Source: Lingula anatina
Lineage: Eukaryota; Animalia; Brachiopoda
Reading direction: 5' to 3'
NCBI GenBank assembly: GCA_051362555.1
Contig: CM120645.1
Span: 17,174,001-17,238,000, forward strand
DNA: 64,000 nucleotides
This document shows, one piece after another, positions 13,200-62,271 of the stretch (positions are counted from its first letter, which is position 1; each line of letters starts with the position of its first letter). Below the pieces are notes generated by a model, which saw only the letters and a list, made by a program, of their open reading frames with translations, did not search any database and had not been told where the DNA came from. The position numbers and the translations under genes are program-made.

Positions 13200-15810
13200 A
13201 ATTGAATCCGATTTAAATGACTTAATATTCGGTGAAAAGTCGCTTTGATTCCTATGTCGGAGCTTCCTGACTCTGCTAGAATGAGAATGCGCCAAGATGC
13301 ACAAGGAGAGGTAGAGCTTCAACAAGTCTAGTTTACAAAAAGGCGTTACTTAAAGAGGGCAGACGATATAATCACTAATGGTAGGATTGACATTCGCTTG
13401 TGTTTATGTGGTTCAACAAAATATATATGGTAGAACACGGTGATTCTATATATGCAGTTTCAAGACAGATCAAGGGCATCTGCACTTGTATATTTGATTA
13501 CAAAAATATTGAAAAAGGAAAATTAATATATTACTTTTAGTGGGAGGGCGGATAATAGTGAGCAGTATATTTGTAAAATTTCTTCCCTTAAATGAAACGC
13601 GTGCATGTACTCAAAGGTGCGGGTTTATGTATTTTCTGTGACATACTAAGTCATATGATCGTGGTGATGATGAAGATTTGACCAATTTTGTAAGCATTTT
13701 AAAACCAGTTACGTAGAGTGTAACTGTTTGTGATGAATTGTGTACATATGTTGTGTTACTGAGAACTCTCATTATAAGGCATGGACTTAATAACGTATAT
13801 ATTTGTATATCCACTGAAGATTTAGAAATGCGTCTTATTTAAAGCTTAATAAAATTTTGTATTACTATGATGATGATGATAAAGTTGAATTACTGCATAT
13901 AATTAATAGATACTTTAATATTTACTGACCGCTTATTTTTCAGTTCTTACCATGTTTGCAATAATGATCACAGGACCATAAATTTTTAGGAAAACTTTGC
14001 CACTTTTAAAACATTTTTCAGACCAGTGAATCTTCGGACAATAAACCATATCGGAATGTAAGCAGTGAACAATGAATTCGTGCCCCACCTTTGCAAACCC
14101 AAACGCTTGCTCGGTGCAGACGAAGTCGTCTGACGTTTCATAATTCCATCACAGGTGTTTAATTTTTGAAGGAGCATGCCTGCCTTGGTTATATACAAGG
14201 TGAATTGAAGAAAGCAAATATAACAGGTGCATGTCTCTCAATATGGCAGTAACAACAACTTGCTAGTTTCAGTGGTTCTCTATAGCGAATGATTACCCCA
14301 GGTGTTTGCACTCATTGACACCACCTTTCTCGATTTTTCACCGGATGATTGAAAAGTGGCAACTAAAACAGGTCAATTTACATCAATTAAGTTGTTCATT
14401 TCATCATCATTGCATTTAAATTGTTCCGCTCCTCCTGGACCCCGTAACTCGAAAGCATCGCGTATTTCGACCGAGCGCAAGCGTCTCGATTCCATAACTC
14501 GCCACATATAATACACTGTACAACGCCTCTGTGTGATATCGCTATTCGCAATGCACGGTGCTTTCGAGTTACGGGGCCCTGGTTTTTTACTCTGCTCTAG
14601 TATATGTAAGTACTACATGATCAAATGTAATACTACATGTATTTGACTTCGAAAAAAAGCCGTTTTGTGGCTGTGAGGTGTGTTTTTGCCCGAATATTAT
14701 CTGTCTAATAACAGTGGCGGCAAAACGTTAAAAAAACGTTTATAAAACTAGAATGAAGTAAGAAAGGATAAAAGGTAGGGTAGAATAGAAAAAACGAATG
14801 TATATATATATTATTTTTTAAAAAATGAGGCTAATTAATGAAGATGAAGACAATATAAAAATTACATTATAGCCATGGAAATACCAAACATGAGTTCATC
14901 GATGCTAGGGGACGACGACCATGTCCAAATATTACACCCTCTGCCCCAACCTTTGCATTTTTTTAATGGTTAGCCTTTCCCCTCCCAGTTAAAATTTACT
15001 TACCCCGTAGCTATAAAAGCTGTCATATGTTCGAGTTCTTTTTGTTTTATTTCGAAGTATACAATACACTATACAAGTATATGATATAAAAGCATTTTAA
15101 TGACGCAACATTACTAATTAAATTTTTTAATATGCACCGTGCCACTTTATGGACATGTCAAAGTGAATGCACCATGACTACTATCAATGTGGCATTAATG
15201 ACGTGTGCATTCCCAGCTACCACGATGTGTACTGTACAAAATTTCATAGCGCTTCCCCAAGGAGACTATATTTTCACCTCCGTTTGTCTGCTACCAACTC
15301 AAAAAGCTACAGATGGATTTTCATGAAAATAGACTTGTTCAGAATAGTTCACAAATGTGTTAACTTAAAAACGATAAGATTTTGTTGGTGACCTGAATCC
15401 AAATATTTTTAAAGGATTCTACATCATTGCGAGATAGAGCCAATGACTCGAACTTGTAGGCTACAATGGATGTGCTCTCAGATACCAATGTTTACCACGG
15501 CTCATACTAATAATACGAAACGAGGTGCCATTATCTATAACATAGCGAATGAATCCTAGGAAACCCTAAGGTGGCCACTTGAAGATTGGCTGTCCCTTTT
15601 TGTCGTGCGTGAGACCGCCCTTTTATTTTTTTTACTTGTTTGTTATTTTAATTATCCGTTGATAGGCTTAAATACCGACTTGCTGCAGTGCATCAAATTC
15701 ATACTGATAATACGTCACGAGGCGTCCATACGGGTGCCTCACTAAGAGCATCTTTGAATATCTGTTTAAAATGTCGTTCCATACAATGTAATTGCATTAA
15801 CTGACAAATG
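12717..15810 (+). repeat. Segmental/tandem duplication, copy 2
   Basis: Matches 1-4575. Carries an extra stretch of about 870 bp (about 13325-14190) and lacks the 1054-1610 and about 2620-4265 segments of copy 1. Confidence 0.9.
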
Positions 15811-15931
15811 ATCAAAGAATCTTCCTTCTCTTTCTCAAACATATCTAGGACCAATATTTGTCAAAATAAGCGGACCTTTTTTTATTTTCCAGGACGCTGC
15901 TTTGGATATTTGGCAATAAAGAAGTTTTACG

Positions 15932-16734
15932 TTATGTTTCAAACTGAACTGGTAGCTCATGCGCATAACCGCGTTTTAAATAGTGGCCCCAGTTCTCTTG
16001 GTTCGTCATCATGTCTTTTACATCCGCCCTTTGTCTCTGATGGAAAACCGTAGAATGCACGAGCTGGTTTTTCTCTCCCTTCTCTGTACTTGTCAGTCGC
16101 TGGTGTCTCTTGTGAATAAGGGCCTTGTTTAAGACTAAAATGAAAAGTAGATTTTATTGGAATATTTTGTAATATCCTGAAGTATTTGATATATCATTTT
16201 GATAACCATACGAAACAGATATTATAATTAACATACCTGTTTAATGCAAAAGAAACCCCAGAGGAAAAGGGCGGTAAAAACCAGAGGTCTATACACTTGT
16301 GGACCTAAACAAGAATGCTTTTTTTGCGGGGCCCTCGTTTTCATTTATTTCTCTTTTTTCACTAGAGGCGTAGCCTTCTCCAACGTCCCTCTGAATAGAC
16401 AACCAAACGTCCACTTTCGATGGGCATTGAAACTAAATCATTTTAATTAAATTAATTAATTTAATCAATTAATTAGTAATTAAAATGCGTGTACGTCTAT
16501 TTGGAAGCCGTTTACATACATCGTTGCTAGCTATAAAAGAGCGACGCTTCTGATAAAAAAATCTGACTCCGGAACTCGGTGTGACTCACGTAGGTCCCTC
16601 AGTGATGGGGTTTTCCGGTTGCGCAGTTTTTCAATTTTGAACCTGAGCAGAATCACGATGGCTGCAACAGCTATCACAGCGTATAGAGCGCTCCTCGTTT
16701 GGCGCAACGGAGACCTGCCGCAGATGCGGGCCAT
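15932..16734 (-). pseudogene. Possible truncated two-exon type II membrane protein remnant (about 115 aa)
   Basis: ATG 16734; basic N-terminus and hydrophobic ALYAVIAVAAIVILL; donor GTGAGT after 16590; acceptor ttttag before 16134 in matching phase 1; open to TAA at 15932. No recognisable domain. Confidence 0.3.
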
Positions 16735-16898
16735 GTTCAGCTTAAACTAGACAACAAAATTCAAGAAAAAAAGATGCATTTCAGATTACACACCTACCAT
16801 CTTTCTTAAACATGGAATCCCGATATCTGATATTCATATTCCTATTCCAATTCGTATTATTATTATTATTATTGTTGAAATATAAGATAAAAAACCTC

Positions 16899-17119
16899 TA
16901 AGAGTGCATTCCCAGAGATTTAGATCGATCCATTCGGATCGACCTAACTCCCTGGGGGTTCACGCTAAATTGCAGTCAGCCGAGCGCGCACGACAGTTTA
17001 TTACCCCCTTACAGCTTTTAGTCGGCGGGACAGACGCTTAAGCCGGCTCAGCTGACAGTAATCTAGTGAGACTCCCCACAGGGATAGATCGATCTAAAAT
17101 CTGTGGAATTGGGGTCTTA
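16899..17119. mobile_element. MITE, copy 2 of the 3940-4141 family
   Basis: Same TIRs and internal sequence (gacctaactccctgg...cacgc...gagactcccc). Confidence 0.7.
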
Positions 17120-21148: not shown

Positions 21149-24100
21149 CTATAATCGCGTATTTTCATGTCCACCTGTTGTCAGTCTCTCTGTCCTTGTC
21201 CCCTCGGAATCCGATAGAGATCGTTCAGGAGCAGCGGTTTTACCAGTTGACTTAAATCCAGCCTGTAGAAATAACCGCTCAACTTTCTTCCACAAAGGCC
21301 CCAAACAAATGCGCATAAAAGCACATACCACGGGTCTCATATTTAGCATAACTATCTGCACCCACTGAGCAGCGTTCTCAGACACCGGCGTGTTCTTTAA
21401 GTGCAAGACACACGAGACAGCGAACGGGAACCAACGTATAGCATCGGAAAAGGCAATTTCAAAAAAGCTGCACATACTGTAAAAATCGGTTATCGATGAC
21501 GGAGATTTCAGAGAGTACAACAAATATAGAAAAATTAGTGCGAAAGTCGTTAAAGAAATTATTGACATTGATAGATATGTGATTTCAACTGCAAAAGCCG
21601 CGTACTGTATCTCTGTTATAAAACTGCTTAAGACAAAAGGATAGCAGGTGCCGGAATGAATTTCAACGTTCATGGACAAAAGAATACCAAGACAAGCTGA
21701 CATTGCAAGGACAACAACTATGCCAACGCACATTGTGCGCTTTAAAATATGCGGTTTTTCAATTTCAGTGATACGTCCGATGATTGCGTGGATAGCAGCG
21801 AAAAATACTAATAAAGGAACACAAACCTGAGGAAAAATATAGAAAAACAATGCAACGTGACACGATGGGCTCTTCCGCCACAAACTGGACATGTTGAAAT
21901 AAGTATCTGTCATCTGCATACTATTAACAAATATTATCAAAACTGGTATAATCATTTGCATTTCAATGACATTCAATGCAACAGCAAATTCTTTCATCAG
22001 AAAAAATCCTGACAGCCTAAAATAAGATATAAGCAATCCTATAGACGACACCACTGAAATTAGAACCACACCTAAACAACAGTACTTAATTACGTCATCC
22101 ATAAACATATCTGAGCATGAAGCAAAATAATCAACTTGTGACTGACATAAATTTGAGTGATGTAACATGCAGCAGGCACTGAACGTATCTGCAATTATAA
22201 TGTCGACATCACCCGGTGCCCCGGCATGTGTGACCTCCAATGGGTTCTGAGACAGATCAATCGACTTCACTTTGTGCCAACCACAAAACAGCCAGGTATC
22301 AAATGACTGGATAAAGTTTTTTGAAATGTTGAAGACAACAATGGAGACGTTATGAAACGAACAGTTGTCCAGGACCTGTATTAGACTAGCTGACAGATCA
22401 AGATGCTGCAAAGCAGGAAGATTGTGGAAACAATGTCGCGGAACGGAAGTTATTGGGTTGTTGCTTATGTTCAGCATTTGAAGAGAAATCATATTGGAAA
22501 ATGCACCACTTCGGATGATGCTTATGTTGTTTTTTGACAGGTCAATACTGCGTAGATTAACAGCGTCTTGAAACATTCTTTTATCAACTTCCACCAGTGA
22601 GTTGTTTGAAATGTCAAGAAATAACAGTACCCGCAAGAAAATGCAGTAGTATCGAAGTAGCAAAGAAGCATTAACGCAGTAGTGGTGTGGAGCATATTTG
22701 CAGTAGAAATGCAGTATAGCCTACTGCAATTCTACTTCAAAAATTACATAGGATTGTACAGAGGAGGAGCATTAATGCAGTAGATTAGCAGCATGATAGA
22801 AGCATGTTTCAAATATGCTAATTAGCTCCCACATCGAAGCAGATTTGAAGCATGTTTGCAGTATGATTGCAGTAGTCTACTGCGCTGGAGTATCTACTTC
22901 GTTTTCGTGCGGGTAGCGCGCAGCTTTCCAATGTTGCATTTGATATGCGGTTATCTTTTAAAATGAGACTTCTTACCATATCTCTTCCTATTATATAAGG
23001 AACTTCAGTTAATAATCGACTCTGATTAAAATACTGTGACCTCTGCAATAGTGCCCCAGTGCAGATTACCGAGAACCCGTCACAAAAACACACAGCAGGA
23101 CACTGAAAACCATAGAATGCTTCATCATCTCGCAGTTTACATTGAGGGATTCCGTCACGCACCTGTCTCTGGGGCAAACAATTGTTCTGTCCTCTACATC
23201 TGTACATCCCTGGGCAGGAATAGCTGCTGCAGGCGATTTCGTCGCTCCCATCATGACAGTCTTTGGCCCCGTCGCAAACCGACCCGGCAGGTATGCAATA
23301 TGACGACGGACATTGGTGATATAAATCTTTGGGACATGTGAATTCATGACATAATGGCGATGTACTTGTGCCTAGAAAAGCATATTCTCTACCCATAAAG
23401 CTATATTCTCCTATCCAGTGCTGGTTAGAGACGTTTTGTACAAGATGTCTACCATTCCTACAGGTTGATAAGGTGCCATATTTATCTCTTTTGTAAAAGC
23501 AAGACGCGTTGCCATAGAACACCTGAGTATTTCTGTAAATTCTTCTGCTTGATGGAGGCTCACCAAGAAAAAATACCTTTTCTTTATAAGTGTATTTTTC
23601 GCAGATGTAGTTTCGACACGTCCACGAGTCGTAATCACCCCCCTCGCACTGCACAAGCGATGGTGCTTGTGATGTTAACTCATCTTCTTCGAAAGGCCCT
23701 AGACAGTCAACCACGCCATCATGTTTCTGTGAATACGGGATGAATGTATCAGCAAAACAAGAATAGAATTTACTCCTGTAGATATTTGCACACTGTGATT
23801 CATCTGACCCGTCCTTACACTGGTGTATTAAGTCGCATCTTTCGTTCATTTGAATGCATTCTCCGCTGCTACAGCGAAACTGGTGTGCTTTACAAGGTGG
23901 ATAGATACAACCTATTTCGTCCGAGTTGTCCAAGCAATCAGTCACTTTGTCACAAAATCGGGATAAATGAAGCTTCTGTCCATTTTTACAACGCCCAAAA
24001 TAAAGTAGATGACAGGTGACATTTTCGTCGCTTCCGTCTAGGCAATCTTTTCGTCCGTCACACCTAGAATCTATGGAAACACAGGTCCCGTCTCCGCATT

Positions 24101-27100
24101 CAAACTGGAAATCAGAACAGGTTCCATTGTTGGTCTTTTTTGATGACATGCGGCGGTCACTGCTTTCGTTGGCGTGTCTTGGGTATTCACATATCACAGT
24201 GGCTGTATGGAATTCTTGCGGGCATGGAATCATGATCCAGTTGGACGAGTAGTGTGGATTGGTGACAATCATAGCCGCACATGATGTACCATGGTCATAA
24301 ACAGGATGCTTTATGTTGAGAAGATTTGACCTCGACATGAATGCAAAATCGTTGTGAACATTTTGTGAATATTTAGCCGCGGTTCGAAAGCGCTCCTCTA
24401 CAAATAATCTGTCATAGTTTGGATGGTACCAGTCCGAAAACACAAGGGGTGTGCTGTCTATCCAGCGGAGTGTGTTCTAAAACAGGTAATAGGATAAAAA
24501 TATACCTTTATATACTAATACACGGAAATATTGCTCCTTGGATCTGAACGTTTATGATGCCTAGCGCAATACTAAAACCTAAAACTCAATTCTGAAAAGT
24601 TCAGCTTTCTATGTATCGCCAATGAAATAACAATTTTTTCAATTGCCTTCCAGCTAGATTGACTTAGATACATCCCATCCAACTGTTGTCTCGCAAAACA
24701 TTAGTTTCTTCAAGTTTTTGAAATAAAACCCATGACACCAATATCGTTTGCTAGTTACTTTTTGCTGCTGCATGGCTGTATGTTTAGACAATTATGAATT
24801 TCTTACCTGTTTTTCTCGTCTTAGGCCCAAGAACAGAAGGAACCGATGTTTGATATATATCTCCGAAAACCAGATCTCATCAATTACAGTTTGATTCAAA
24901 ACGACCTTTAAAGTGATATCGTCCAAGGCGGTCGGCAGTTCGCCTCCACTGGCCAGACACAGTTCACGTGATCTCAACCAGGTAAGGGGAGGACTTGCGT
25001 CTTCGGACTGTGAATCAAATGTAAGTAATTTATAGCATTTTCCAAAGATACATGACGTTCCTCTACTGTTATGGATATCTCCTACTAATCTGTCAGAGAC
25101 GTTAACGTAGCTCTCTAGCTTGTAACGAAGTCGAAGATCTGGATAGTCGTGAGGGGACGAATCAGCGGGAAGAGGTTCTAAGACAATACAGACCCTCCAG
25201 GCACTGAGCGTGTTCCAGGTGTATCCGATAAAGCCATTTTTGTATCTAGTGTTTTTCACGGTAAAAGTCGGTGTGATAAAGAGTATGCGATCGTTGGAAG
25301 TTTCGTTATGACTGACCACTGACGTATGCGAGTAATATTCCTCTATTTTAAGTTTCAGTTCATTAAATGAATTAAATGAGTAAACACAGCGCTGAATTCT
25401 AAGTTTGAGAGAATAAAAGCATGATTCGCAATACTGGTCCTTTTTTATTGTTATTGTATATGTGATTCCGGTATATTGTCGTCTACAAAACCCAGGTAAT
25501 ATCCCATTTGATTGAGTAACCGTTTTGTTGCGTGTTCTTTCTTGTCCTTCTTTGAAAACGTTACTCTCTTGATCCACGTTGTTGTCTAGCCACATAAAAT
25601 AAAAGTAAGGGGTTGAACAAAGAGTTCGAGTTACTAGCAAGTTTCCAGTATATCCATCATTCACTAAAAATATCTTGAACACTTTACCCTCAAATGGATC
25701 ACTGTATTCATTGGACAAAAACTGACACTTTCTGTCTCCCGGAACTGCATCTCTAAGTTCAAAAGATATCGTCAGTGGAGTATCAAATTTGAAAAACACG
25801 TTCCCATGTTTTGGACTCTCCAAATATATGAACATTCTTCCGTCAATATGACAGTCAGATCCGATAGACACGGTCACATAACTTGTTTCAGATAATCCAG
25901 AACTTTCATTATATCCTACCTGGCACGTGTTTTTGCCCTCAAAATACAGTAGTCTACCCCACTGACGGATCTGGCGGTCCATATAGAACACTCTGAATGT
26001 TAAGACGCGGTTAGGCATGAAACATGACCCACTGGCATTGTTAAATCGGAAACAGTAGAATGTTACACGCAGTCGACTAAAAGTGATAGTCGCCTTCAAT
26101 TTCTCCATATCATAGTAGGTGCAACTCGGCCCCATCATAGCTAAGTTATTATTTGAGTCACTGAAGCTAGTTAATACTATTCCAAAGAAAGGGCATCTTT
26201 CGCCAACTATCCCGGACGGGATAGCAGAGGGCGAGGTTAAGTCGCGGAAGTTACTTATAAACTCCATATAAATGCTTTCTAAGTCTACCATGAAATTTGG
26301 GAAAAGGTCAACATCATGTCGAACTAAGGGTTCAGGAATTAGAGTTAAACTAACTGAAGTGTGGTTACTGAAGTCTGTACAAGATGTGTTCAGGCGAGCA
26401 AAAAGATTTCTAGAAGATTGGCATGCTGTCCCGGGCTTATAGTGTGTTACGATAGAAGTGTAGTGAGCAACAAACACCCACGGGGTAGGACCCAGTATGT
26501 ACCTTTCTTCAGTTAAGTTGAAAAATGCATTCCAACCTATTGTACGGATGGAACCATTTTTCAGTGGGATATGCGTGTCCGTGGGATGCAAAATAATCCT
26601 AGATCCTGGGGGTCCTTCGTATACTTGCAATGTATACGGCACAGAGGTGTTGGAATAAGTGCCTGAAAGCACTTCCCAGTGCAGTAAAATCTTCTCGCCA
26701 ACTCGAGCACTGATATGAACGTGATATTCCACTTTACTGTTGCACTGCGTCGAAATAAGCTCTGTTACTGGATGGAATACGCCTCGGTGTGAAGACAATA
26801 ATGCGGGTAGTCGAACCTGGTAACAGTCTGAAAATACTGCCTGGTATTCGATGTGAAATCCGGACGATTCCCAATCACTATCTGTAGAAAATTCGACACA
26901 GAACTCATTTCCGGCTAGGGTGAGTTCCGTTGAGTTGAGAATTGTAAACTTTCCGCAAAATTTATCGAACAGACGGGATGCATTACATTGCCCTATGAAT
27001 ACGGCAAGATAATCGAATATACAGTTAACGTCTGAATATTCTAGTGAGAAATGGTTTAATCTTAACCTTACCCCGCTACCCTTAGCAATAGTTATCATCC

Positions 27101-27440
27101 AGCTCTGTCTGTGCGACGGTGGATAAGAACCTTGGCCAAAATTTGGACTTTGAATGATACCGCATATCCCAACTTTGTTCAGAACAGTTGAATTACCCTC
27201 TGTACGTGTATTCGTCTGTCCCTCACACGAATCCCAGGCACATTGTTGAATTAACTGCGACGATTTATAATTCGCCAGCGCCGGTGTTTTCAGCGTAATC
27301 GTCTTCAAACATTCGCGAAATAATGAGCGCGCATCAGACATTTTCAAGAGGCTAATGCCATCACTTTCTCTGCATACAAAGAAAAGTGAGAAAACTGAAA
27401 GGAACATGGACCGCGTCTTTTTGCTCATTCTCATGGCCAT
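21149..27440 (-). pseudogene. GRL101-like leucine-rich-repeat GPCR (signal peptide, CUB, C-type lectin, LDLa repeats, LRRs, 7TM), about 1891 aa when restored; this allele is interrupted by a MITE
   Basis: Exon 1 27440-24807 (CUB CGIIQSPNF...CIFDYL...FSTDSDWESSGF; CTL start KCYKL...LTW...C). Phase-0 intron; exon 2 from 24476 ([16 protein letters not shown]), LDLa repeats ([39 protein letters not shown]), LRRs (IDLSKNNI, LNISNNPI), hinge SCSDM, WRKSPSC, about 7 TM. Frame is restored by removing 22630-22915. Confidence 0.85.
22630..22913. mobile_element. 284-bp MITE with TA target duplication (Tc1/mariner-type) inserted in a coding exon
   Basis: TIRs cccgcaagaaaatgcagtag / ctacttcgttttcgtgcggg; TA at 22628-29 and 22914-15; internal gcagtag subrepeats. 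Confidence 0.9.
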
Positions 27441-28772
27441 GTCTCATAAGCATCTGTCGATGAATGCACACTTGCACGTGCGAAAAAAGCTTCGTTCTGT
27501 TTACTTGTGTAACCAGCATATATGGGAGTGGTGCAATCTGATGATTTATCGATTCCAATACATTAATATTTCAATTGTGTGTCCACAATTTACAGCTTCG
27601 CGAGTTGGGCATTATAATGTATCTCAGAACTACACTATGACTTGGACATGTACAATGTAAGTGCAGACGTCAGAGGCCTGAGAGGTTTTACTTGGCTGTT
27701 GGAAGTGTTGATTTACACCGAACTAGTTTACAACATTTAAAATCTATCAACTAGGCAAATGATACATCAATACAACGCGTCCCATTAGATGATGGATACT
27801 CGTCATGTGATGTATTCCCTAGATTAAATGATATCGGAGTGATGCGCGTAACAATCAATTTACTTTAATGCGTGACATTAAAACAGTATACTTTATTGGA
27901 ATAAAACACATGAGTAATCTGACTTATGTAGAAATGTCACAGTATGAACAATACATCATTGCCCATAAAAACTTAATGAGACGACAATGAAGGAGAGTGG
28001 TTTCAATTGTCTGGTGTCCACTCTCCCCGTCCCCTTTCACTGTCATAGAACATAATGCTTGATTAGTACGGTTGTGATTGATGGAAAAGGTCGCTGACAT
28101 CCCTGGACCGGGAGAGAGAGGAGCGCAAATTGTGTTCAGTAATTAATTTTTTTTTACAAATTAATACCGTCGCAGTCAGCAAGCCACTATGCTAATGGTG
28201 GTATGGTTAAAATAACCGGTCTTGGTGAAGTATTTGCGTCTATTAAAAACATAAAATGAATAAATCATTTCGATTCGGTGTTTTTCTTTTTGCACCACCG
28301 TTCTGGCTGTGAGGCACTGACTTTACAGGTATATGCTAAACTTCTTATCAAAGGCTGCCAGTCTTTGATATTTAGAATCCACTTTAGACTTTCAACTGCG
28401 TAAACGTTATGGTACTCATACCGCCAGATTGGATGGTAGGAAATAAGATGCACGAGCAAAAAGAACCGAGTAGGATCGACAGGTTACGAACAAAAAATCC
28501 ATAGAAAATTAATGCGTCGTCTTTAATAGAAAGTGTTTTACGTGTACAATCAGGGTGTCTTCCGTACCATCCCTCTTTCACTGTCATAGAGCAGGGTGCT
28601 TGATCAGTACAGGAGTGATCTATGATACAAGCACGCAGAAAACTCTATCTAAGAGAGAGAAAGAGAGATTAAATTGAGACATCAATCATACATGGTATTA
28701 TTTCAGCGTCCACATTAAGGGAGATATAAATCGAGTATGTTTATCTTAACAACACTGGATGCTCTGTCAGTT

Positions 28773-37511: not shown

Positions 37512-37649
37512 TTTTTTTTTAAATTTTTTTTTCGATTGTTAAAACATCAACTGGATCAGCGGAGTACGGTATCTGGACAGTACTTACTGTACTCGCTGGT
37601 TGAACAGCTTACTGCGACTTACCACTCCGCTTACACTTATTATCGGTAG

Positions 37650-38474
37650 TGTTACTGCCAGAGCAGTGTTTTATAGATAAATCTTATTTCTTTACTTCGG
37701 ACGCGCTACTCACTTGTTTGTCGCATCGGTGTTGAGTAACAATTGTTTTTAGCGCGCTTATGATAATGATGGGATAGAATGTGATTGCACGAGGAATGAG
37801 ATCGGCTGATATTAAATGCTGAGACAGCCGTAATTACAAGTGTTTTTGTAACAGGAATCTGGCCCATAAGGTTAGCAATTAATTTTAAGTTATGAAAGTT
37901 CATTTAAAGATAATTGCGAGAAGATAAAATTAGTTTTCCATTGTAAACTGCAACTTTGAGTAGCGTTAGAAATGCCGGTCTGATGTACAATGCACAGTAC
38001 ATGTAACACAATCACTGTACCTTTCAGTATTGGAGTAAAGAAAGTTCAGTAAAGTGTAGTGTATTGTTTAGAAACGAGAATGTAGTTGTACTAGTTGCGA
38101 GTTAAAGATTGTTTGTTTTATGTTCGTAATCAATGTTATTTTAAAAGCGTATTTTTTCATTGTGTTAGTTGCGCCAGATGAGATTTACTACACAATCATT
38201 TAGAACCCAGTCGCTTGCATTACACTAGAATAGCCCAAAGTCGGTAAGAGTTACTTATATTTTGGAGATAAAGATAGGATAACATGCAACTGTTAAGTAA
38301 AGATGTTATTTAAGTGACTTAATAGCATTATATAAAAGAACTAGGGCAAGAATATGAGATGATTTTCATATTTTATTTCAATTATTCTTTTCAGTTGACG
38401 GTTTAAGGTTAAATAAATCAGTAAAAACGACGCAAAGCTGTTGTTGTTGTGTGTGAGTATTGCAAGTGGCTACA
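37650..38474 (+). repeat. 5' LTR
   Basis: Direct repeat of 44611-45435; contains donor G|GTAAGA at 38244, acceptor ttcttttcag| at 38394 and AATAAA at 38412. Confidence 0.97.
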
Positions 38475-39087
38475 GTCAACGACTAGGATTTGAGATGGCC
38501 TTACCAATAGTCCACAACTAAAGCCCTGAGACGGCCCGTACCGAACAACCGAACCAAGAAGACAGAATTTATGACCTACTTACAACCTGTGGTAACTCTA
38601 GATATCTGAGATGCCTGGAGCCAGTCAACAGCCATTATTTAGATGACCCGGCCCAGTCAAGTACTAGCAGTTACTGGTGGGACTGTAATTAAGGAAATTG
38701 AACTAAGATCCAATCCGCAGCTTGCAATAAAGCTGAAATTGAGACTTTCTCGAGTATATGTTGACACTTGATTTCATATCCACAGATAACTATAAATACT
38801 AGTAGACCTCAGTGTAGCTGAATATATTATTGGCTATCTAAATATACATATGATTATTAATTTATTTGTTTGTTAAAATTAAGATACTCGGCAATTTGAC
38901 ATGTTTGCTGTTGATGTTCAAATGTTTTAGCTAGCTTATTACTTATAGAGAAACTGTCTACATTTTGAAATTTACTTGTCTTGTGTAGTGTAGATAAGTT
39001 TATTTGAATTCAAATAAGTTACGCTGCCCATACCACCTGCCCCCTCCCTCCTTTCTAAGAATACCTGCTCACTGCTTGACATTAAAA

Positions 39088-42000
39088 ATGGATGCAGCTA
39101 CCATTACCAAGACTCCCAGCACTAGGACAGTTCCTTCTCAGACACCAACTGACCAAGAAGTAACATTCAGAAACATATCGCCTAAAGATGATTTGAGAAG
39201 AAGACTAATTGAGGAATTAGATCCAGATGACTCCGTCAGTCAAGCCGGCTCAAACGTATCTTTTAAGGAGCGACAGTTAGAAGAAGAAGCTAGACAGGTT
39301 GCTTTGAAGGAAAGGCTGAAGTACCTTACAGCACAGCAAGAAATAGAAGAGCAACAGATACGTTTAGAGCAGAGAAGAAAGCGGCTCTTGTTAGAATCAG
39401 AACTGAATGAAAGCAAGAAAAGGGAAGAAATCTTTAGGAAAGCATTGGGAGGTGAAGATACTACTAAGAAGGAGTCAGACAGCAGCTATAGCCATGATGT
39501 TGTGAGGGCCTTAGAGAAGTTGAGCCTGAGTAGATTACCGATTCCAGAGCCACCTGTATTTGAGGGAAATTATCTAACATATGTAACATGGCGACTAGCA
39601 TTCAAGACTCTAATAGAAAGCAGAAATATCCCACCCAGTGAGAGGCTGTACTACCTAAAGAGGTACCTCAGAGGAGAAGCTAAAGAGACAGTGGATCATT
39701 TGTTTTACTTAGATTCAGAAGAGGCTTACATTGAAGCCCTTGAGATACTTGAAGATAGATATGGTGATAAATTCTTGATAGCAGAGGCTTTCAGAGACAA
39801 ATTAGAAAAGTGGCCCAAGATTAACAGTAGAGACAGTAAGGGACTTAGAAAACTATCAGATTTTCTCAGGCAGTGTTTAGCAGCAACAGATCATGTAGGA
39901 GAGTTGAAGATCCTGGACGACTGTCGGGAAAATAGGAAGTTACTTCAGAAACTACCTGAATGGATCACACGAAGATGGGCCCGAATTGTCGAAGAATCAC
40001 AAGGTTTCCCAGGCTTCAAGAGGTTTGTAGAGTTTGTAAAAAAGGAATCCGACATTGTAAATAACCCTGTTATGAGACCAGCTGAAACTGCATTTAGCAA
40101 GAAAACCCCCACTTCCACCAGCCTTATGACGAAGACGAGCGATCAAGCTATACCAACGCCTCCTGTCACGAAAAATGCCTGTACATTCTGTGAGAAAATA
40201 GGACACGACATCAGAGAATGCCGAAACTTCGAAAGAAAAACGCCACAAGAAAGAATGGAGTTTATAAAGAAAAGAGGTCTTTGCCTAAGCTGCCTTAGAA
40301 ACGGTCACTTAGCCAAGGAGTGTAAAAGGAAGGAACAATGCAGTAGATGTGGTCGTAAACACCCTGCCATACTACATGGGGACTACGAAGCCCTACACCC
40401 AGAAGATCAACATGTAAGAACATTGTCAAGTACTTGCCAAGAGGGAGCTATCAGTTCAATGACAATTCCAGTCTATGTATCTGTAGGAAATTCCGGGAAT
40501 GAAATCCTGACATATGCTCTTCTAGATAGTCAAAGTGATGTTACATTCATTAGCGACGAGTTAGCAGCCAAGCTGAATGCAGAAAGCGTACCTACAAGTA
40601 TCAGGATTACAACAGTCAACTCCAGCTATGTAGTCAAAACTTCAAAGGTGTCAGGATTGACTGTAAGAGGTTTTAACTTAACAGAAACTATAGCACTACC
40701 AACCTGTTATACAAGAGAAAACATACCATTCAACAAGAAACATGTACCTAGACCATCGGATGCGAGAAGATGGAATCACCTGCAAAATATACAGAGCCAA
40801 ATTGCACCGCTCCAGAATTGCGACGCAGGTTTACTTATAGGTTACAACTGCTCTCGTGCATTGGTACCCCTTAGTGTCAGAGTAGGAGCAAACGAGGAAC
40901 CCTATGGAATACAGACACCCCTGGGATGGAGCGTCGTGGGAAGGACCGGACGAGAAGACACAGATGAATATCACCTCAGTCACAGAGTGATGAGGAAAGA
41001 AATACAAAAGGATTTGAGAGTCGATGATAGAGGAGAAGTGACTTTTGTCCACAGAACAAAGGTTAAAGAGACAGTAACTGAGCCAGAGATAATTCAGTTA
41101 CTGGAAGCGGACTTCAGGGATGAGCACAAGTCAGAAGATTCCTTGTCCCAGGATGACTTGAAGTTCTTAAGGAAGATGAAAGACACAATCTATCAAGACC
41201 AAGACAATTTCTATACCATGCCTCTACCATTTAGAACTGATGCCCCACAGTTGCCTGACAACATGCCCATGGCCATGAGAAGACTTGAGCATCTGAGAAA
41301 GAAATTTGCAGACAAAGAATTTGCCGCCGAATATAAGAAGTTCATGGACGCGATGATAGAAAGCGGAGAAGCTGAACCTGTTCCAGACAAAGATGTAGCT
41401 GGAGGACACAGATGGGTCGTGCCGCACCATGGAGTTTACCATAAACGTAAAGGAAAGCTCAGGGTAGTATTTGACTGCGCAGCGAGATATAAGAACATTA
41501 ACCTGAATGAGAACCTCATCTCAGGTCCAGACCTCACCAACAGTCTGATAGGATGTCTCCTGAGATTCAGAGAGGGATCAGTAGCCGTTGTAGGAGACAT
41601 AGAACGAATGTTTTATCGGTTCAAGGTAGACCCACGAGATCGTAACTACTTCCAGTTCCTGTGGTGGGATGGAGACCTAGAAGGCACACCTAAGCTATTT
41701 AGGATGACAGTTCACCTGTTTGGAGCTGCCAGTTCCCCTGCGTGTGCTTACTTTGCTTTGAAACAACTGGTTGAAGACTATGGAGAAGAATTTGATGAGA
41801 AGGTTTGCTGGGTAGCTGGTAATTGCCTTTACGTAGACGACTTGTTATTAAGCATTGATTCTGCTGAGGAGGCAAAGCAGCTTATTGAAGGCGTACGTCA
41901 GCTATTTCAGAAAGCAAATATAAGACTTCACAAGTTTATTAGCAACAACCAAGAAGTTTTGGAGAGTATTCCCGTATCAGAAAGAGGGGCACAGAGCACC

Positions 42001-44409
42001 ACTGTTGATTTGCCTTTACCTGCCACAGAGAGAGTATTGGGAATTCAGTGGGATACCCATAGCGACCAGCTCAGATTTCAGTTAACACTGAATGAAAGAC
42101 CGATGACTAGAAGAGGAATTCTTTCGACTGTTGCCTCTGTCTATGATCCCTTGGGTTGTATAGCACCATTTATCCTATTAGGCAAACAGATACTGCAGGA
42201 GATGTGTGCGACCAAAGCCAGCTGGGATGATCCAATATCAGAAGAACTCAGACCAAGATGGGAGAAATGGCTGCGTGAATTGCCAAAGCTAGCAGAAATT
42301 CATTTATCAAGATGCTATATTCCCCAAGACTTTGGAAAAATTGTCACAGCAGAGATACACCACTTTTCGGACGCAAGTACCAGAGGATATGGCCAATGCT
42401 CCTACCTTCGAGTAGTGAATAACAAAAACGAGTGCCACTGCTGTATCGTGTTGGGCAAATCTCGAGTCGCGCCACTCAAGATTACTACAATTCCGAGATT
42501 AGAGCTTACAGCAGCCACAATGTCGACCAAGATGAGTACTCTGCTGAAGTCTGAAATTACCTATAAAAACCTCAAGGAGTATTTCTGGACAGACTCCAAG
42601 ATAGTGCTAGGATATTTGAAGAACAATGTAAGAAGATTTCATGTCTTCGTAGCCAACAGGATTCAGACGATTCAAAACGCTTCTGACCCTAGTCAGTGGC
42701 ACTACGTGCCAACCAATGATAACCCGGCCGACCATGCTTCTAGAGGGCTGTATCCAGAGGAACTGATGGCATCAAATTGGTTTAAAGGCCCAGAATTCCT
42801 GAGAAACCCAGTTCTAAGCATGGTAGAAGAAAATCCAGAGGTTGATCCAAATGATCCAGAGTTGAAGAAAGCAACAGTAAATGCAGTGGAGACTACAGAA
42901 AAAGCAGGAACATTTACACAGAAGTTCAATAGATTTTCATCCTGGACCAATGCCATTACAGCAGTGACAACCATTAGAAAACGTCTACTCAAAATGGGTT
43001 CATCATTGTCTGCTGACCGACGAAAGGCAGAACTTACTATTCTTAAGCTGCTTCAGGCTGAACGGTTCCAAGACGAAATTAGGCAAATCAAAGATGGATC
43101 GCTTCCGAAGAAAAACCCTCTCTCCAAGCTGGATCCTTATATTGACGAAGAAGGAACCCTGCGAGTAGGAGGACGTCTGACACGATCCTCACTCTCTTAC
43201 GAAGTACAACACCCTGTAATTTTGCCAAAGTCAGGACATATTGTAGACCTAATTGTGCGTCATTGCCATCAGAAGGTAGCCCACCAGGGAAGAGGTTTCA
43301 CTCTGAATGAGATACGTTGCCAAGGGTACTATATCATTGGTATAGGCAAGACGGTTGCTTCTGCAATACACAGATGCGTAACCTGTAGAAAAAACAGGGG
43401 CAAAAGTGAAGAACAGAGGATGTCAGATTTACCAAGGGATCGAACAGAACCTTCACCCCCATTCAGTTACTGCGGCATTGATTGCTTTGGTCCCTTCCCT
43501 GTGAAAGAAGGTCGCCGTGAAGTTAAGCGATATGGATTGATAGTGACCTGCATGGCGTCGAGAGCAGTACACATCGAATGCCTGGATGACATGACGACAG
43601 ATAGTTTCATAAATGCTTTAAGATGTGTGATAGCTTTGAGGGGTCCCATACGGCAAATCAGATGTGATCAGGGATCAAATTTTATCGGAGCAAGAGTGCT
43701 TTTAGATAAATCACTAGAAGAGGTCAAAAATGACGAGTTGAAGAAATTTATGATTGAGAACAAGTGTGATTTTGTGTTTAACAGCCCACACTCAAGCCAT
43801 ATGGGAGGTGTGTGGGAGCGACACATTAGAACCATCAGAAGTATACTAGCAGCAATGTTGGAGCAACATGGTTCTCGTATTGACACAACCACCTTAAGAA
43901 CCTTCCTATATGAAGTTATGGCCATTATTAACTGTCGACCTTTGACCGTACAGAACCTACATGATCCACTTGGTCCAGAATCACTTACTGCGAACCATTT
44001 GTTGACAATGAAGCCAAAGGTAATATTGCCATTGGGAGAGTTTGGACCTGAGCACCTGTATGCAAGGCAAAGATGGCGCCAAGTACAAGTGTTAGCGGAT
44101 AATTTCTGGAGTCGCTGGAGGAAGGAATACCTTCTTAATCAGCAACAACGAACAAAGTGGAATGGGAAACGAAGAAACCTAGGAGTGGGAGACATTGTTT
44201 TGCTCAAAGATGAAGGATTATACAGAGGAGACTGGCGACTTGCCAGAGTGACAGAGGCGAGCATAGATGAGGATGGATTAGTTCGCAGAGTGAAGATTCT
44301 TTTGGGGAATCCTGATCTTTCTGCCAAAGGCATCCCCTCCTCTACGTCTACTATATTAGAACGTCCAATCCATAAACTAGTTTTGTTGTTAGAAGGGGAT
44401 AAGTTGTGA
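39088..44409 (+). CDS. BEL/Pao Gag-Pol polyprotein (Gag, aspartic protease, RT, RNase H, integrase)
   Basis: Frame open from 39004, first ATG 39088. Three Cys/His knuckles (CTFCEKIGHDIREC, CLSCLRNGHLAKEC, CSRCGRKHPAILH); ALLDSQS; RVVFDC, GDIERMF, YVDD; HHFSDAS, IPRLEL, WTDS; integrase HHCC, GIDCFGP, CDQGSNF, GGVWER. Confidence 0.96.
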   Translation: MDAATITKTPSTRTVPSQTPTDQEVTFRNISPKDDLRRRLIEELDPDDSVSQAGSNVSFKERQLEEEARQVALKERLKYLTAQQEIEEQQIRLEQRRKRLLLESELNESKKREEIFRKALGGEDTTKKESDSSYSHDVVRALEKLSLSRLPIPEPPVFEGNYLTYVTWRLAFKTLIESRNIPPSERLYYLKRYLRGEAKETVDHLFYLDSEEAYIEALEILEDRYGDKFLIAEAFRDKLEKWPKINSRDSKGLRKLSDFLRQCLAATDHVGELKILDDCRENRKLLQKLPEWITRRWARIVEESQGFPGFKRFVEFVKKESDIVNNPVMRPAETAFSKKTPTSTSLMTKTSDQAIPTPPVTKNACTFCEKIGHDIRECRNFERKTPQERMEFIKKRGLCLSCLRNGHLAKECKRKEQCSRCGRKHPAILHGDYEALHPEDQHVRTLSSTCQEGAISSMTIPVYVSVGNSGNEILTYALLDSQSDVTFISDELAAKLNAESVPTSIRITTVNSSYVVKTSKVSGLTVRGFNLTETIALPTCYTRENIPFNKKHVPRPSDARRWNHLQNIQSQIAPLQNCDAGLLIGYNCSRALVPLSVRVGANEEPYGIQTPLGWSVVGRTGREDTDEYHLSHRVMRKEIQKDLRVDDRGEVTFVHRTKVKETVTEPEIIQLLEADFRDEHKSEDSLSQDDLKFLRKMKDTIYQDQDNFYTMPLPFRTDAPQLPDNMPMAMRRLEHLRKKFADKEFAAEYKKFMDAMIESGEAEPVPDKDVAGGHRWVVPHHGVYHKRKGKLRVVFDCAARYKNINLNENLISGPDLTNSLIGCLLRFREGSVAVVGDIERMFYRFKVDPRDRNYFQFLWWDGDLEGTPKLFRMTVHLFGAASSPACAYFALKQLVEDYGEEFDEKVCWVAGNCLYVDDLLLSIDSAEEAKQLIEGVRQLFQKANIRLHKFISNNQEVLESIPVSERGAQSTTVDLPLPATERVLGIQWDTHSDQLRFQLTLNERPMTRRGILSTVASVYDPLGCIAPFILLGKQILQEMCATKASWDDPISEELRPRWEKWLRELPKLAEIHLSRCYIPQDFGKIVTAEIHHFSDASTRGYGQCSYLRVVNNKNECHCCIVLGKSRVAPLKITTIPRLELTAATMSTKMSTLLKSEITYKNLKEYFWTDSKIVLGYLKNNVRRFHVFVANRIQTIQNASDPSQWHYVPTNDNPADHASRGLYPEELMASNWFKGPEFLRNPVLSMVEENPEVDPNDPELKKATVNAVETTEKAGTFTQKFNRFSSWTNAITAVTTIRKRLLKMGSSLSADRRKAELTILKLLQAERFQDEIRQIKDGSLPKKNPLSKLDPYIDEEGTLRVGGRLTRSSLSYEVQHPVILPKSGHIVDLIVRHCHQKVAHQGRGFTLNEIRCQGYYIIGIGKTVASAIHRCVTCRKNRGKSEEQRMSDLPRDRTEPSPPFSYCGIDCFGPFPVKEGRREVKRYGLIVTCMASRAVHIECLDDMTTDSFINALRCVIALRGPIRQIRCDQGSNFIGARVLLDKSLEEVKNDELKKFMIENKCDFVFNSPHSSHMGGVWERHIRTIRSILAAMLEQHGSRIDTTTLRTFLYEVMAIINCRPLTVQNLHDPLGPESLTANHLLTMKPKVILPLGEFGPEHLYARQRWRQVQVLADNFWSRWRKEYLLNQQQRTKWNGKRRNLGVGDIVLLKDEGLYRGDWRLARVTEASIDEDGLVRRVKILLGNPDLSAKGIPSSTSTILERPIHKLVLLLEGDKL

Positions 44410-44610
44410 GTTTTCCATAGAATAAGGTTCGAGTATGGTTTTGTGATACATGATGTTCAAAGAACTGTTAAGTGAAGATCTAATGGTATTTGGGAGTACC
44501 AAAGCTATTGTATAGTGAGTTAATAGTTACAGTTTACCAGTTACATTGTTTCATGTGTAAGTTAGTTTTGTTTGTTTGTATAGAAAATCAATTAGATTTT
44601 GGCTGGGGAG

Positions 44611-45435
44611 TGTTACTGCCAGAGCAGTGTTTTATAGATAAATCTTATTTCTTTACTTCGGACGCGCTACTCACTTGTTTGTCGCATCGGTGTTGAGTAA
44701 CAATTGTTTTTAGCGCGCTTATGATAATGATGGGATAGAATGTGATTGCACGAGGAATGAGATCGGCTGATATTAAATGCTGAGACAGCCGTAATTACAA
44801 GTGTTTTTGTAACAGGAATCTGGCCCATAAGGTTAGCAATTAATTTTAAGTTATGAAAGTTCATTTAAAGATAATTGCGAGAAGATAAAATTAGTTTTCC
44901 ATTGTAAACTGCAACTTTGAGTAGCGTTAGAAATGCCGGTCTGATGTACAATGCACAGTACATGTAACACAATCACTGTACCTTTCAGTATTGGAGTAAA
45001 GAAAGTTCAGTAAAGTGTAGTGTATTGTTTAGAAACGAGAATGTAGTTGTACTAGTTGCGAGTTAAAGATTGTTTGTTTTATGTTCGTAATCAATGTTAT
45101 TTTAAAAGCGTATTTTTTCATTGTGTTAGTTGCGTCAGATGAGATTTACTACACAATCATTTAGAACCCAGTCGCTTGCATTACACTAGAATAGCCCAAA
45201 GTCGGTAAGAGTTACTTATATTTTGGAGATAAAGATAGGATAACATGCAACTGTTAAGTAAAGATGTTATTTAAGTGACTTAATAGCATTATATAAAAGA
45301 ACTAGGGCAAGAATATGAGATGATTTTCATATTTTATTTCAATTATTCTTTTCAGTTGACGGTTTAAGGTTAAATAAATCAGTAAAAACGACGCAAAGCT
45401 GTTGTTGTTGTGTGTGAGTATTGCAAGTGGCTACA
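44611..45435 (+). repeat. 3' LTR
   Basis: Direct repeat of 37650-38474, preceded by the PPT and followed by TSD GGTAG. Confidence 0.97.
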
Positions 45436-45497
45436 GGTAGTATTTGGTAAAATTTCAAAATTCAGACTATGTACTTGTTGTTTGCTACACTACAATA

Positions 45498-58125: not shown

Positions 58126-58375
58126 AAAATGTGCAGTACGGTAATGGATAATAAATTTTGAACTCCGGAAAAATAAAACATAATGCTTGGCAAAGCAGAC
58201 AACTTGTGGTCAAAAATGACATTATTTTATCAAATTTAAACTTCTGCAACTTCAGAGAACCTCCCATTTCAAGAACTTTGACCAAAATGACCTTTTCTTT
58301 ATTTTAATTAATTTTTTCTGTAGGAAATTTATGGCACATTATGGTAACTCCAAAATTATAACATTTAGTCCCTTA

Positions 58376-59960
58376 TATCTCCAAAACTGGCAGAGATAGG
58401 TCCATAGTTACTATTGAAGTTGAATAGGAAGTCATATACTGGCAATCTTACTGTGACCTTGACATTGACCTTTGACCTACTTTTCACCATGAACTGAACT
58501 TTGCAAATTTTGCTTCCCTTTTATCTCCAAAACTGGCAGAGATAGGTCCATAGTTACTATTGAAGTTGAATAGGAAGTCATATACTGGCAATCTTACTGT
58601 GACCTTGAAATTGACCTTTGACCTACTTATCACCATGAACTGAACTTTGCAAATTTTGCTTCCCTTTTATCTCCAAAACTGGCAGAGATAGGTCCATAGT
58701 TACTATTGAACTTGAATAGGAAGTCATATACTGGCAATTTTACTGTGACCTTGAAATTGACCTTTGACCTACTTTTCACCTTGAACTGAACTTTGCAAAA
58801 TTTGCTTCCCTTTTATCTCCAAAACTGGCAGAGATAGGTCCATAGTTACTATTGAACTTGCATAGGAAGTCATATACTGGCAATTTTACTGTGACCTTGA
58901 AATTGACCTTTGACCTTCTTTTCACCATGAACTGAACTTTGCAAATTTTGCTTCCCTTTTATCTCCAAAACTGGCAGAGATAGGTCCATAGTTACTATTG
59001 AAGTTGAATAGGAAGTCATATACTGGCAATCTAAATGTGACCTTGAAATTGACCTTTGACCTACTTTTCACCATGAACTGAACTTTGCAAATTTTGCTTC
59101 CCTTTTATCTCCAAAACTGGCAGAGATAGGTCCATAGTTACTATTGAAGTTGAATAGGAAGTCATATACTGGCAATCTTACTGTGACCTTGAAATTGACC
59201 TTTGACCTACTTATCACCATGAACTGAACTTTGCAAATTTTGCTTCCCTTTTATCTCCAAAACTGGCAGAGATAGGTCCATAGTTACTATTGAACTTGAA
59301 TAGGAAGTCATATACTGGCAATTTTACTGTGACCTTGAAATTGACCTTTGACCTACTTTTCACCTTGAACTGAACTTTGCAAAATTTGCTTCCCTTTTAT
59401 CTCCAAAACTGGCAGAGATAGGTCCATAGTTACTATTGAACTTGCATAGGAAGTCATAAACTGGCAATTTTACTGTGACCTTGAAATTGACCTTTGACCT
59501 TCTTTTCACCATGAACTGAACTTTGCAAATTTTGCTTCCCTTTTATCTCCAAAACTGGCAGAGATAGGTCCATAGTTACTATTGAAGTTGAATAGGAAGT
59601 CATATACTGGCAATCTAAATGTGACCTTGAAATTGACCTTTGACCTACTTTTCACCATGAACTGAACTTTGCAAATTTTGCTTCCCTTTTATCTCCAAAA
59701 CTGGCAGAGATAGGTCCATAGTTACTATTGAAGTTGAATAGGAAGTCATATACTGGCAATCTTACTGTGACCTTGAAATTGACCTTTGACCTACTTTTCA
59801 CCATGAACTGAACTTTGCAAATTTTGCTTCCCTTTTATCTCCAAAACTGGCAGAGATAGGTCCATAGTTACTATTGAAGTTGGATAGGAAGTCATATACT
59901 GGCAATTTACTGTGACCTTGAAATTGACCTTTGACCTACCTTACAATGAACTTAACTTTG
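58376..59960. repeat. 146-bp tandem satellite, about 11 copies
   Basis: tatctccaaaactggcagagataggtcc at 58376, 58522, 58668 ... 59836 (exact 146-bp period). Confidence 0.97.
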
Positions 59961-62271
59961 ATTGCACCATTTTTAGTTATATATATTTTTTGCATATTTT
60001 GAAAATTCTTGTTGATTGCATTTTTACAGCTTGTCAAGCACAAGACTGGTGGCTGCACCCCTTATTTTGTGTATGTGGGGGTCTATACGAATGCGCTTGC
60101 TCCAGCTGGTGGTACAATATTCGGAGGCGGTATCGCCTCTCTGATCCTCTAGTTATATTTCATATCTTGAGAAAGAGGGCACTCCAGGATTTCATGGTTT
60201 AATTATGCGAATGTTCATCACAATGCAAGTGTCTTACTTTGTCAAAATCTGATGCCCAGCAGTTATAATAGTATGATGTTGAAGTTCCTTTTGCTTCGAT
60301 GTGAAAGCAGATAAAAATCAAAGCTTTAAAATGTGTTAGAACACAGTGCGTTGCAAGATTTAATAAGAACAGGGATAATCAGTTGTCAGTTTTTTTAATT
60401 CTGCTGTATGCCCCAATAGGTAAACTTTAAATAGGTTTAAAATTACTGTACTTATTGGAAGCTGTTTGTTTTGAACTTTTATCATATTCTGCGAAGAGAT
60501 GAGAGGCATGGTTTTTAACATTCAGATTCATGTTTTAAATTAAGTACTTCATTTAACAGCAGCACTTGTTTTCAAGACGTGTATAACATTTGCAACATTC
60601 TATAAGTTTTATGTATATTTATGAATCATTCACACTTGCTGTGCCTCATTACAAATTTGGCATATTTGCAGTTTTCAAACTTGGCCAAAGACGGCATTTG
60701 GTTAATCAGGTGTGAATTGTATTATATTATTTAGAATGCTTAAGGAACAGGTTCAAGGCAGATAGACACTGCTGCACAGTGGACACAAATGTCTGGTGAT
60801 TTTTTTTTTTTTTTTGACATTTTTAACAATTATTTTGATACCATTCTGAATACAACTTGTAACACTTTTAGTAGATGTGGTTTTATTGTAATGCCAGTCT
60901 GTGGGCTACTGGTGTTCTTGGTTTGGTTGAAGACAAAGGACGTAGAGGTGCCTGTCTGTTGGTGTAGTTTTCAGAGGCTGGGGGGGGGGGGGGGGGGGGG
61001 GGGGGCTTGGAGGGTGGTGGGGGATTTGTAAGTCTTTGAACCAATATTGTGTGTGTAATTATGTTACCATTCTTTTTGTAAACCTGTCTCATTCATGCTC
61101 CAGTTTCTACCAAAATTAGTGGGCAACTGGTAAAATGAAGATAAGATTGTATAGAAATGTGGAATTGTGCAACTCATTTTGCTTGGAGCTTTTGTGTGGT
61201 ACATGTCATCAAAGAATTGTCACTTTCAAAGAACAGAAAATTACTTCATAGTCTGTTGTAAATGGTCTGAAAATGGTGGAAAAAGGTATTTTACCCCATG
61301 AAAAATAATTTTCAGTTCATTTCTTTAAGACTCATTCATAGGCAGCCAAAAGTGTAAGGTGGATAAAGAGACTGAATATGGCCAATTTAAAAACTTAAAA
61401 ATTTTATTTAAGTTTATAAAATGGCAGTAATTTATTATTAATACAAGAATTGGAATTTTAAAATTCTCTTTGAAGTAGTCACCTGGAGAGGTGCTGAACA
61501 GCAATTGGGCTCTTTTTGCTAGATGTTGTCCCTCTGGTGTCCAGCATGTCAGCAGGATGAGGACAATATTGATCGGAAATGGTGATTTTTATAACAATAA
61601 ATTTTTTACAAATATTTTTGTCTTGTTATTTATTCCAGTGACACAACATGAAGATCCATTTGGCATTTTAATTCTTATTAATCAAAAATTCAAACAATTT
61701 CTCTGAATTATATTTCCAAGTAATGTGGATGATAAAATTCTTTATAAATGTGGAATTAATCGCACTTAAAAACCCACTTATGTTAAAATTGCATTAAAAG
61801 AATAAACCAATTCTGTCCACAAATTACTTCACTTATGTAAGTGGTAGTAAATTCAATTTTACCTTACATGGATCTATTACTTGACTAACAATGTCTTGGT
61901 CATATGAGATGATCACAGATGGAAACACCTCCATGTCTGCCATCTCAACTTAAGGGATTTATAGCAGTTAACATAATACTTTCAAAAAATCAATCAGTAA
62001 GTTGAAGACATTCAGTGTCTCTCCTCACAGACATGCGTCTTATTCTTTGCCATACACTTCCATGAGGGTGGAGGTATCAGGTTTGCCTTTATAACAGATT
62101 TGTATGTCCATAAGTGATTATTATGCTCAAGGCCACATTTATATTCATCTACAATACATAGCATTCAAGGACGTCCTCTGTTCTGTTACAAGGTGTCATT
62201 TTGCTGAAGGCATTGCTGATCCAGCGCCTATCCATTCTTAGATTTTTGTGTGAAACTAATGCTGGCGAATT

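Follow-up and report, generated by a model that had tools for sequence, protein, structure and literature searches.

Three kinds of primer have been described for reverse transcription in long terminal repeat (LTR) elements, namely a whole tRNA, half a tRNA and a contiguous self-primer (PMC6317226, PMC4600332). The self-primer of Tf1 is 11 bp long and depends on RNase H for its cleavage (PMC7175516). In the accessible portions of the sources, Tf1 and Tf2 of S. pombe, Tj1 of S. japonicus, the Tf1/sushi group and plant Tcn1 and TAR all have a primer-binding site (PBS) that is complementary to their own LTR RNA over about 11 bp, lies at the LTR edge and has no tRNA counterpart, as does the element described here (PMC7175516, PMC4600332, PMC6317226). 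The published screen for self-primers used blastn and accepted matches of at least 10 bp in the LTR (PMC6317226).

Elements of the Belpaoviridae family have LTRs of 0.2–1.2 kb, genomes of 4.2–10 kb and an 18-nt PBS for tRNA-Arg or tRNA-Gly, and their replication is called poorly understood (PMC8742986). We found no report of BEL/Pao self-priming or of an intron-split primer in the literature searched, which included the accessible parts of PMC554778, PMC3118150, PMC3601003, PMC8220671, PMC6238403, PMC5443660 and PMC11042837, with subscription journals, Repbase and supplements outside its scope.

Here, we analyse an intact LTR retrotransposon that spans 37650–45435 (7786 bp, plus strand) of the window, i.e. 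of the whole 64-kb stretch of Lingula anatina DNA under study. Its main parts are as follows:

37645–37649 (left copy) and 45436–45440 (right copy), plus strand: target-site duplication GGTAG, 5 bp, read from the sequence
37650–38474, plus strand: 5' LTR, 825 bp, with TG..CA ends (TGTTAC..GCTACA), defined as a direct repeat of the 3' LTR
39088–44409, plus strand: single Gag-Pol open reading frame (ORF) of 1773 aa with DUF1759, RVT_1, Peptidase_A17, H2C2, rve and DUF5641 domains
44601–44610, plus strand: polypurine tract GGCTGGGGAG, read from the sequence
44611–45435, plus strand: 3' LTR, defined as a direct repeat, with both LTR introns still present

The two LTRs are identical at 824 of 825 positions, the sole mismatch being at 38174, and together with the flanking GGTAG duplication they set the LTR end independently of any primer hypothesis. 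The Gag-Pol domains occur in the order DUF1759, RVT_1, Peptidase_A17 (E 7e-46), H2C2, rve, DUF5641, and the same domains were found in 1731 homologs of the ORF. Its closest homologs are 44–55% identical, and those with names come from fish, echinoderms and one hemichordate, a host range in keeping with what is available on the Sinbad, Sailor and Suzu lineages of BEL/Pao (PMC6238403). By its sequence, then, the element is a young BEL/Pao-type retrotransposon. It falls within the Belpaoviridae size ranges (825-bp LTRs, 7786-bp element, TG..CA ends) and shares the PR-RT-RH-IN order of Gag-Pol, the Pao-type Pfam domains and a polypurine tract of about 10 nt that precedes the 3' LTR, here at 44601–44610. 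An 18-nt site for tRNA-Arg or tRNA-Gly is absent from the element and from its readable relatives; having no TGG PBS, the element is BEL/Pao-type by its proteins, yet departs from the ICTV description in its priming. The N-terminus of the ORF (39088–39700) is about 200 aa shorter than in most homologs, and tblastn found no such part upstream of the ORF. A search of the viral collection found no relative.

Elsewhere in the window, three long open frames on the minus strand at 21149–27443 encode CUB, LDL-receptor class A and leucine-rich repeat domains and probably belong to one host receptor gene. About 11 copies of a 146-bp unit form a tandem array at 58223–59982, and the segment 315–4361 is duplicated at 12924–17119 (12.6–13.4 kb apart, 83–96% identity).

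The features that bear on priming lie in and next to the 5' LTR:

37871–38168, plus strand: upstream LTR intron, 298 nt, GT..AG, its joint found in six of seven RNA runs and in two variant reads of run X4
38169–38243, plus strand: 75-nt exon whose last bases form the predicted primer's 5' half, skipped in two reads of run X8
38239–38243, plus strand: predicted 5' half of the primer, AGTCG, opposite PBS positions 6–10, from the sequence and from a compensatory change in relative L002
38244–38394, plus strand: primer-splitting intron, 151 nt, GTAAGA..ttttcag, covered by nine junction reads in three of seven RNA runs
38395–38399, plus strand: predicted 3' half of the primer, TTGAC, from the sequence; cleavage would fall after 38399
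38412–38417, plus strand: poly(A) signal AATAAA with a GU-rich tract downstream, from the sequence
38475–38484, plus strand: predicted non-tRNA PBS GTCAACGACT, flush with the LTR end, from the sequence

An earlier note, made from the letters alone, had ended the LTR at 38474, described a PBS without TGG beyond it, and pointed to AATAAA at 38412 and to a 151-nt intron inside the LTR (donor G/GTAAGA at 38244, acceptor ttattcttttcag ending at 38394, the slash marking the cut). It had further claimed that splicing joins AGTCG (38239–43) to TTGAC (38395–99) into an exact 10/10 reverse complement of 38475–84. These readings hold: the two LTR copies back the LTR end, the PBS GTCAACGACT begins at 38475, the poly(A) signal occupies 38412–17, RNA reads cross the junction, and the match survived a recheck of its coordinates. 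The G.A mismatch that the note saw just past the duplex exists in the window (G38400 against the terminal A of the LTR) and is common but not universal among relatives. The second LTR intron at 37871–38168 is absent from that note.

On its plus strand, the whole 64-kb window contains no contiguous copy of the primer 10-mer, and unspliced LTR DNA offers six contiguous bp to the PBS. The LTR allows 17,424 junction registers (57 GT × 61 AG), among which one perfect 10/10 match to the PBS was found against 0.017 expected under uniform base use. That sole perfect register is the 38243^38395 intron, and its donor at 38244 ranks first among 14 LTR donors scored blind to the PBS (P = 0.018). The LTR end of the element and its surroundings lack a TGG. 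The PBS is followed by GGATTTGA, at a spacing reminiscent of a tRNA T-arm. ARAGORN found no tRNA genes in the 64-kb window, and an Rfam search gave nothing relevant, its one match being at chance level (Thr_leader, E 0.45).

RNA reads came from seven of nine available runs with the same species label, of which 6–30% each was examined. Nine reads cross the 38243^38395 joint, the check that the earlier note had named, and they come from three of the seven runs and two studies: X4 contributes six sense-strand reads from five starts, X7 two reads over the 151-nt joint in a variant copy, and X6 a single read; X1, X5, X8 and X9 have none. The junction reads reach up to 62–70 nt on their shorter side; they may stem from 5', 3' or solo LTRs and could also derive from genomic copies that lost the intron. 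Two reads of X8 join 37870 directly to 38395, so that the 5' half of the primer is lost. In X4, most reads over the 5' part of the intron are unspliced, depth being 33–42 there as against 7–12 near the intron end. Start or end peaks are absent over the element in all seven runs. Within the intron, sense depth in X4 falls about threefold just after TATATAAAAG at 38330–38345, as if some copies ended there. Depth is also near zero at 38890–39059, ahead of a pyrimidine tract with an AG at 39059, shortly before the Gag ATG; this is a possible leader intron, with no joint among the reads.

We gathered relatives with an alignment of 22 proteins, which gave 76 metagenome loci and 14 genome-contig loci (90 in all; best-segment protein identity 33–55%). 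The first scan fixed no more than a ‘CA’ followed by a stretch complementary to a donor/acceptor joint, and the same layout came back repeatedly. LTR end and primer site are readable in 39 of the 90 loci, the other 51 having no 5' part, beginning inside U5 or yielding nothing. A perfect split match between junction and PBS, 10–14 bp long, occurs in 30 of these 39, which include the near-copies L011/12, L016/17, L045/48/52 and L046/47/53 and represent 17 distinct PBS 10-mers. L084 has a split match with one internal mismatch, L032 is ambiguous, and seven loci have only a contiguous match of 9–10 bp (L014, L043, L062, L076 and the truncated L004, L033 and L049). A TGG-type PBS at the LTR end was seen in none of the 39. 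Some matches rest on weak donors (L010, L011/L012, L018, L026, L071, L077), and an 11-bp match in L041, which has no LTR-like end, was set aside as chance.

Several relatives depart from the usual layout in small ways. L086 (7190–7894), L018 (1323), L050 (573) and L085 (145) have LTR ends other than CA, yet retain the split-primer layout with 10–14 bp; L007 (3208), a near-copy of L006, has intact splice sites and a mismatched first PBS base. The PBSs of most relatives start with GT right after the terminal CA of the LTR, and some are strong splice donors (ACA/GTAAGA, e.g. L046 at 1097 and L043 at 926). Such a site exists only after the 5' LTR and might help to suppress the 5' poly(A) signal. 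L077–L090 are animal retrotransposons on contigs filed as bacterial metagenome-assembled genomes (MAGs), and these assemblies likely contain host contamination.

Junction and PBS change together in relatives down to 33% protein identity, the covariation by which the note had proposed to judge its idea of a primer made by splicing, and that idea thus gains support from both the junction reads and the relatives. In L002, of all readable relatives the closest, one pair is swapped on both sides, a compensatory change. A donor that gives 10–13 bp is present in 18 of 24 elements, and in an 18 × 18 cross table each junction pairs with its own PBS over 10–13 bp and with other PBS types over 0–8 bp. 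With random PBS tails, the chance of such a match is 0.002–0.07 per element for 17 of the 18 and 0.16 for L081. In 10 of 24 elements, the donor with the top score blind to the PBS is also the one that matches. Since complementarity guided most choices of LTR end and acceptor, we considered separately the six elements in which two LTR copies define the end. The layout is present in all of them (the window element, L028, L048, L081, L084 and L086), L084 with its one mismatch; L065, L080 and L083, whose repeats mark no LTR end, and L046, whose repeat marks the start only, are outside this count. Of 11 out-of-sample loci with a truncated 5' LTR, there are four in which the 3' LTR supplies a matching donor, ranked first or second. 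No such donor was found in the other seven, for which the 3' sequence amounts to at most 330 nt in four and 448–554 nt in three.

The commonest match length is 11 bp, the same as that of the Tf1 primer in the portion of the source available (PMC7175516). Pairing extends into the LTR in none of 22 elements; the base that follows the primer is G in 17, C in four, A in one and T in none, and since it is never T, pairing stops at the LTR edge. AATAAA or ATTAAA lies downstream of the acceptor in 15 of 18 elements. In a quick tree of 85 rows, each locus represented by one aligned segment, loci with the split form occur throughout, the most distant branch (L081, L082) included, and L014, L043, L032, L024 and L025 make up one starred clade without a good donor. 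The tree labels predate the resolution of L011/L012, L018, L026, L050, L071, L085 and L086.

Splicing strengthens the duplex in all 22 folded elements, in the window from −7.1 to −14.3 kcal/mol. Its formation in nested folding depends on how much of exon 1 is included: the window duplex has a probability of 0.00 with 45 nt of exon 1, 0.83 with 20 nt and 0.99 with 12 nt, and with 45 nt only 6 of 22 elements reach at least 0.7. A longer leader, as modelled by nested folding, hence does not favour the duplex. The competitor is a predicted 11-bp helix, 38209–19/38461–71:

38209–38219, plus strand: predicted 5' arm of a second helix, 11 bp with 38461–38471, in a similar register in 8 of 22 elements
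38461–38471, plus strand: predicted 3' arm of the second helix, adjoining the LTR end

The two helices interleave as a pseudoknot, and the folding program draws nested structures only. For 11 of the 22 elements, no U5 pairs better with exon 1 than its own (permutation p 5e-5, the relatives not being independent), and the pairing has z ≤ −2 against dimer-shuffled U5 in eight of the 22. In 8 of 22, a top helix couples positions −35 to −12 of exon 1 with the last 17 bases of U5. This modelling suggests that the primer has a 5' tail folded onto U5, or else that the fold is an alternative that must be undone. Retroviral tRNA primers likewise fold onto U5.

The same structures could be read as regulatory, such that the duplex is real and serves poly(A)-site choice, packaging or translation while something else primes. 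The junction region does have competing U5 partners around the poly(A) signal, and foamy viruses offer a parallel, their LTR poly(A) choice being governed by a splice donor and RNA structure in the part of the report available (PMC3694450). We nonetheless think this improbable, because in 22 of 22 elements the last pair falls precisely at the LTR boundary, the very place required for the end of a minus-strand primer, and no other site for a primer is apparent.

Lower still in probability is priming without splicing, in which transcription would start at the Inr-like TCAGTT at the acceptor, the short 5' end (6 bp) would prime as in Tf1, and the intron would be incidental. The unspliced 6-bp core of the window folds with a probability of 0.78, and where exon 1 ends in AG the unspliced RNA already pairs over 8–9 bp. 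Seven relatives have contiguous matches of 9–10 bp, among them L014 and L043 from the same starred clade as L032. Against this, sense reads run through 38391 with no start peak, and such priming leaves unexplained why, over 17 PBS types, the exon end on the donor side follows the PBS. The note itself had worried that its splice model rested on four extra matching bases; that worry is answered by six GTAAAATATC-type elements, in which 5 bp before splicing (about −1.5 to −2.3 kcal/mol) become 10–11 bp after it.

Priming in trans, to which we give even less weight, would have both LTRs spliced in most RNAs, with unspliced RNA as the template and the primer supplied by intron-less copies or by co-packaged spliced RNA. 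Spliced and unspliced reads do coexist, the contiguous matches of the short-LTR loci L014 and L043 resemble intron loss, and the 5'/3' asymmetry discussed below would no longer be needed; retention of the intron in 30 readable relatives suggests, on the contrary, a need for it in cis. Least credible of all is that a host tRNA or tRNA fragment primes and that the junction match is a by-product: the family is tRNA-primed according to the ICTV (PMC8742986), and the spacing of GGATTTGA after the window PBS resembles that of a T-arm, but the element has no TGG, its relatives have 17 different PBS 10-mers, L002 retains the first eight PBS bases without the T-arm-like tail, and neither a tRNA gene in the window nor a relevant Rfam match was found. 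A degenerate tRNA PBS was likewise rejected, on L002 and the diversity of PBSs. We also rejected the free 3'-OH of exon 1 after the first splicing step as the primer, as the 5–8 bases past the acceptor also track the PBS.

We consider it probable that a self-primer assembled by splicing and otherwise like that of Tf1 replaces the tRNA in this element, with the following course of priming and cleavage. Transcription would begin within the 5' LTR, ahead of the donor, and splicing would then remove the intron. The resulting joint would anneal to the PBS, perhaps held in place by the second helix, which would pair exon 1 with the end of U5 in a pseudoknot topology, and the element's RNase H would cut after 38399, as described for Tf1 in the accessible text (PMC7175516). 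Strong-stop DNA would then comprise 38400–38474 and jump to an RNA whose 3' end keeps the intron and offers about 35 nt of R, so that this transfer would restore the intron in both new LTRs. During plus-strand synthesis, the primer would serve as template for the new PBS, and this copying would in itself maintain the match between junction and PBS. Only 17 nt separate the acceptor from the downstream AATAAA, and cleavage and polyadenylation may therefore outrun splicing at the 3' end. Alternatively, the 3' intron could come from co-packaging of spliced and unspliced RNAs.

Foamy viruses provide a precedent for the asymmetry between 5' and 3' ends that this course of events needs. As far as the available text goes, each of their LTRs has the major splice donor upstream of its poly(A) signal, and the two ends handle this donor differently (PMC3694450). 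The present element likewise has a donor upstream of AATAAA in both LTRs; the foamy virus case concerns poly(A) choice rather than a primer, whereas here a whole intron, donor and acceptor, lies within the LTR. The differences from the Tf1/sushi group are of another kind. That group is of Ty3/gypsy chromovirus ancestry, and the present element, with its Pao-type domains, stands outside it. Its members have a primer that is contiguous in LTR DNA and made up of the transcript's first bases, whereas here only 6 bp are contiguous and a spliceosomal intron splits the primer, which probably also has a longer 5' tail than theirs. A primer split in this way would escape the blastn screen for self-primers as outlined in the part of that report available (PMC6317226).

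A broader reading, to which we give an even chance, is that splice-gated self-priming is the default in a large and old BEL/Pao branch of aquatic animals. A capped primer built by the spliceosome would grip the template in two places, the PBS and the end of U5, much as a tRNA does; the same RNA would be spliced in its 5' LTR and unspliced in its 3' LTR, whereby the intron is inherited; and the intron-less, Tf1-like forms would be secondary. In its own right, a primer present only once splicing has occurred would add to the forms described, in a family officially listed as tRNA-primed, and would explain why these elements have no recognisable PBS and escape PBS-based annotation. It would pose the question of how one RNA splices its 5' intron yet transmits the same intron from its 3' end. 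It would also give the host spliceosome control over reverse transcription; the isoform that skips the exon has no primer.
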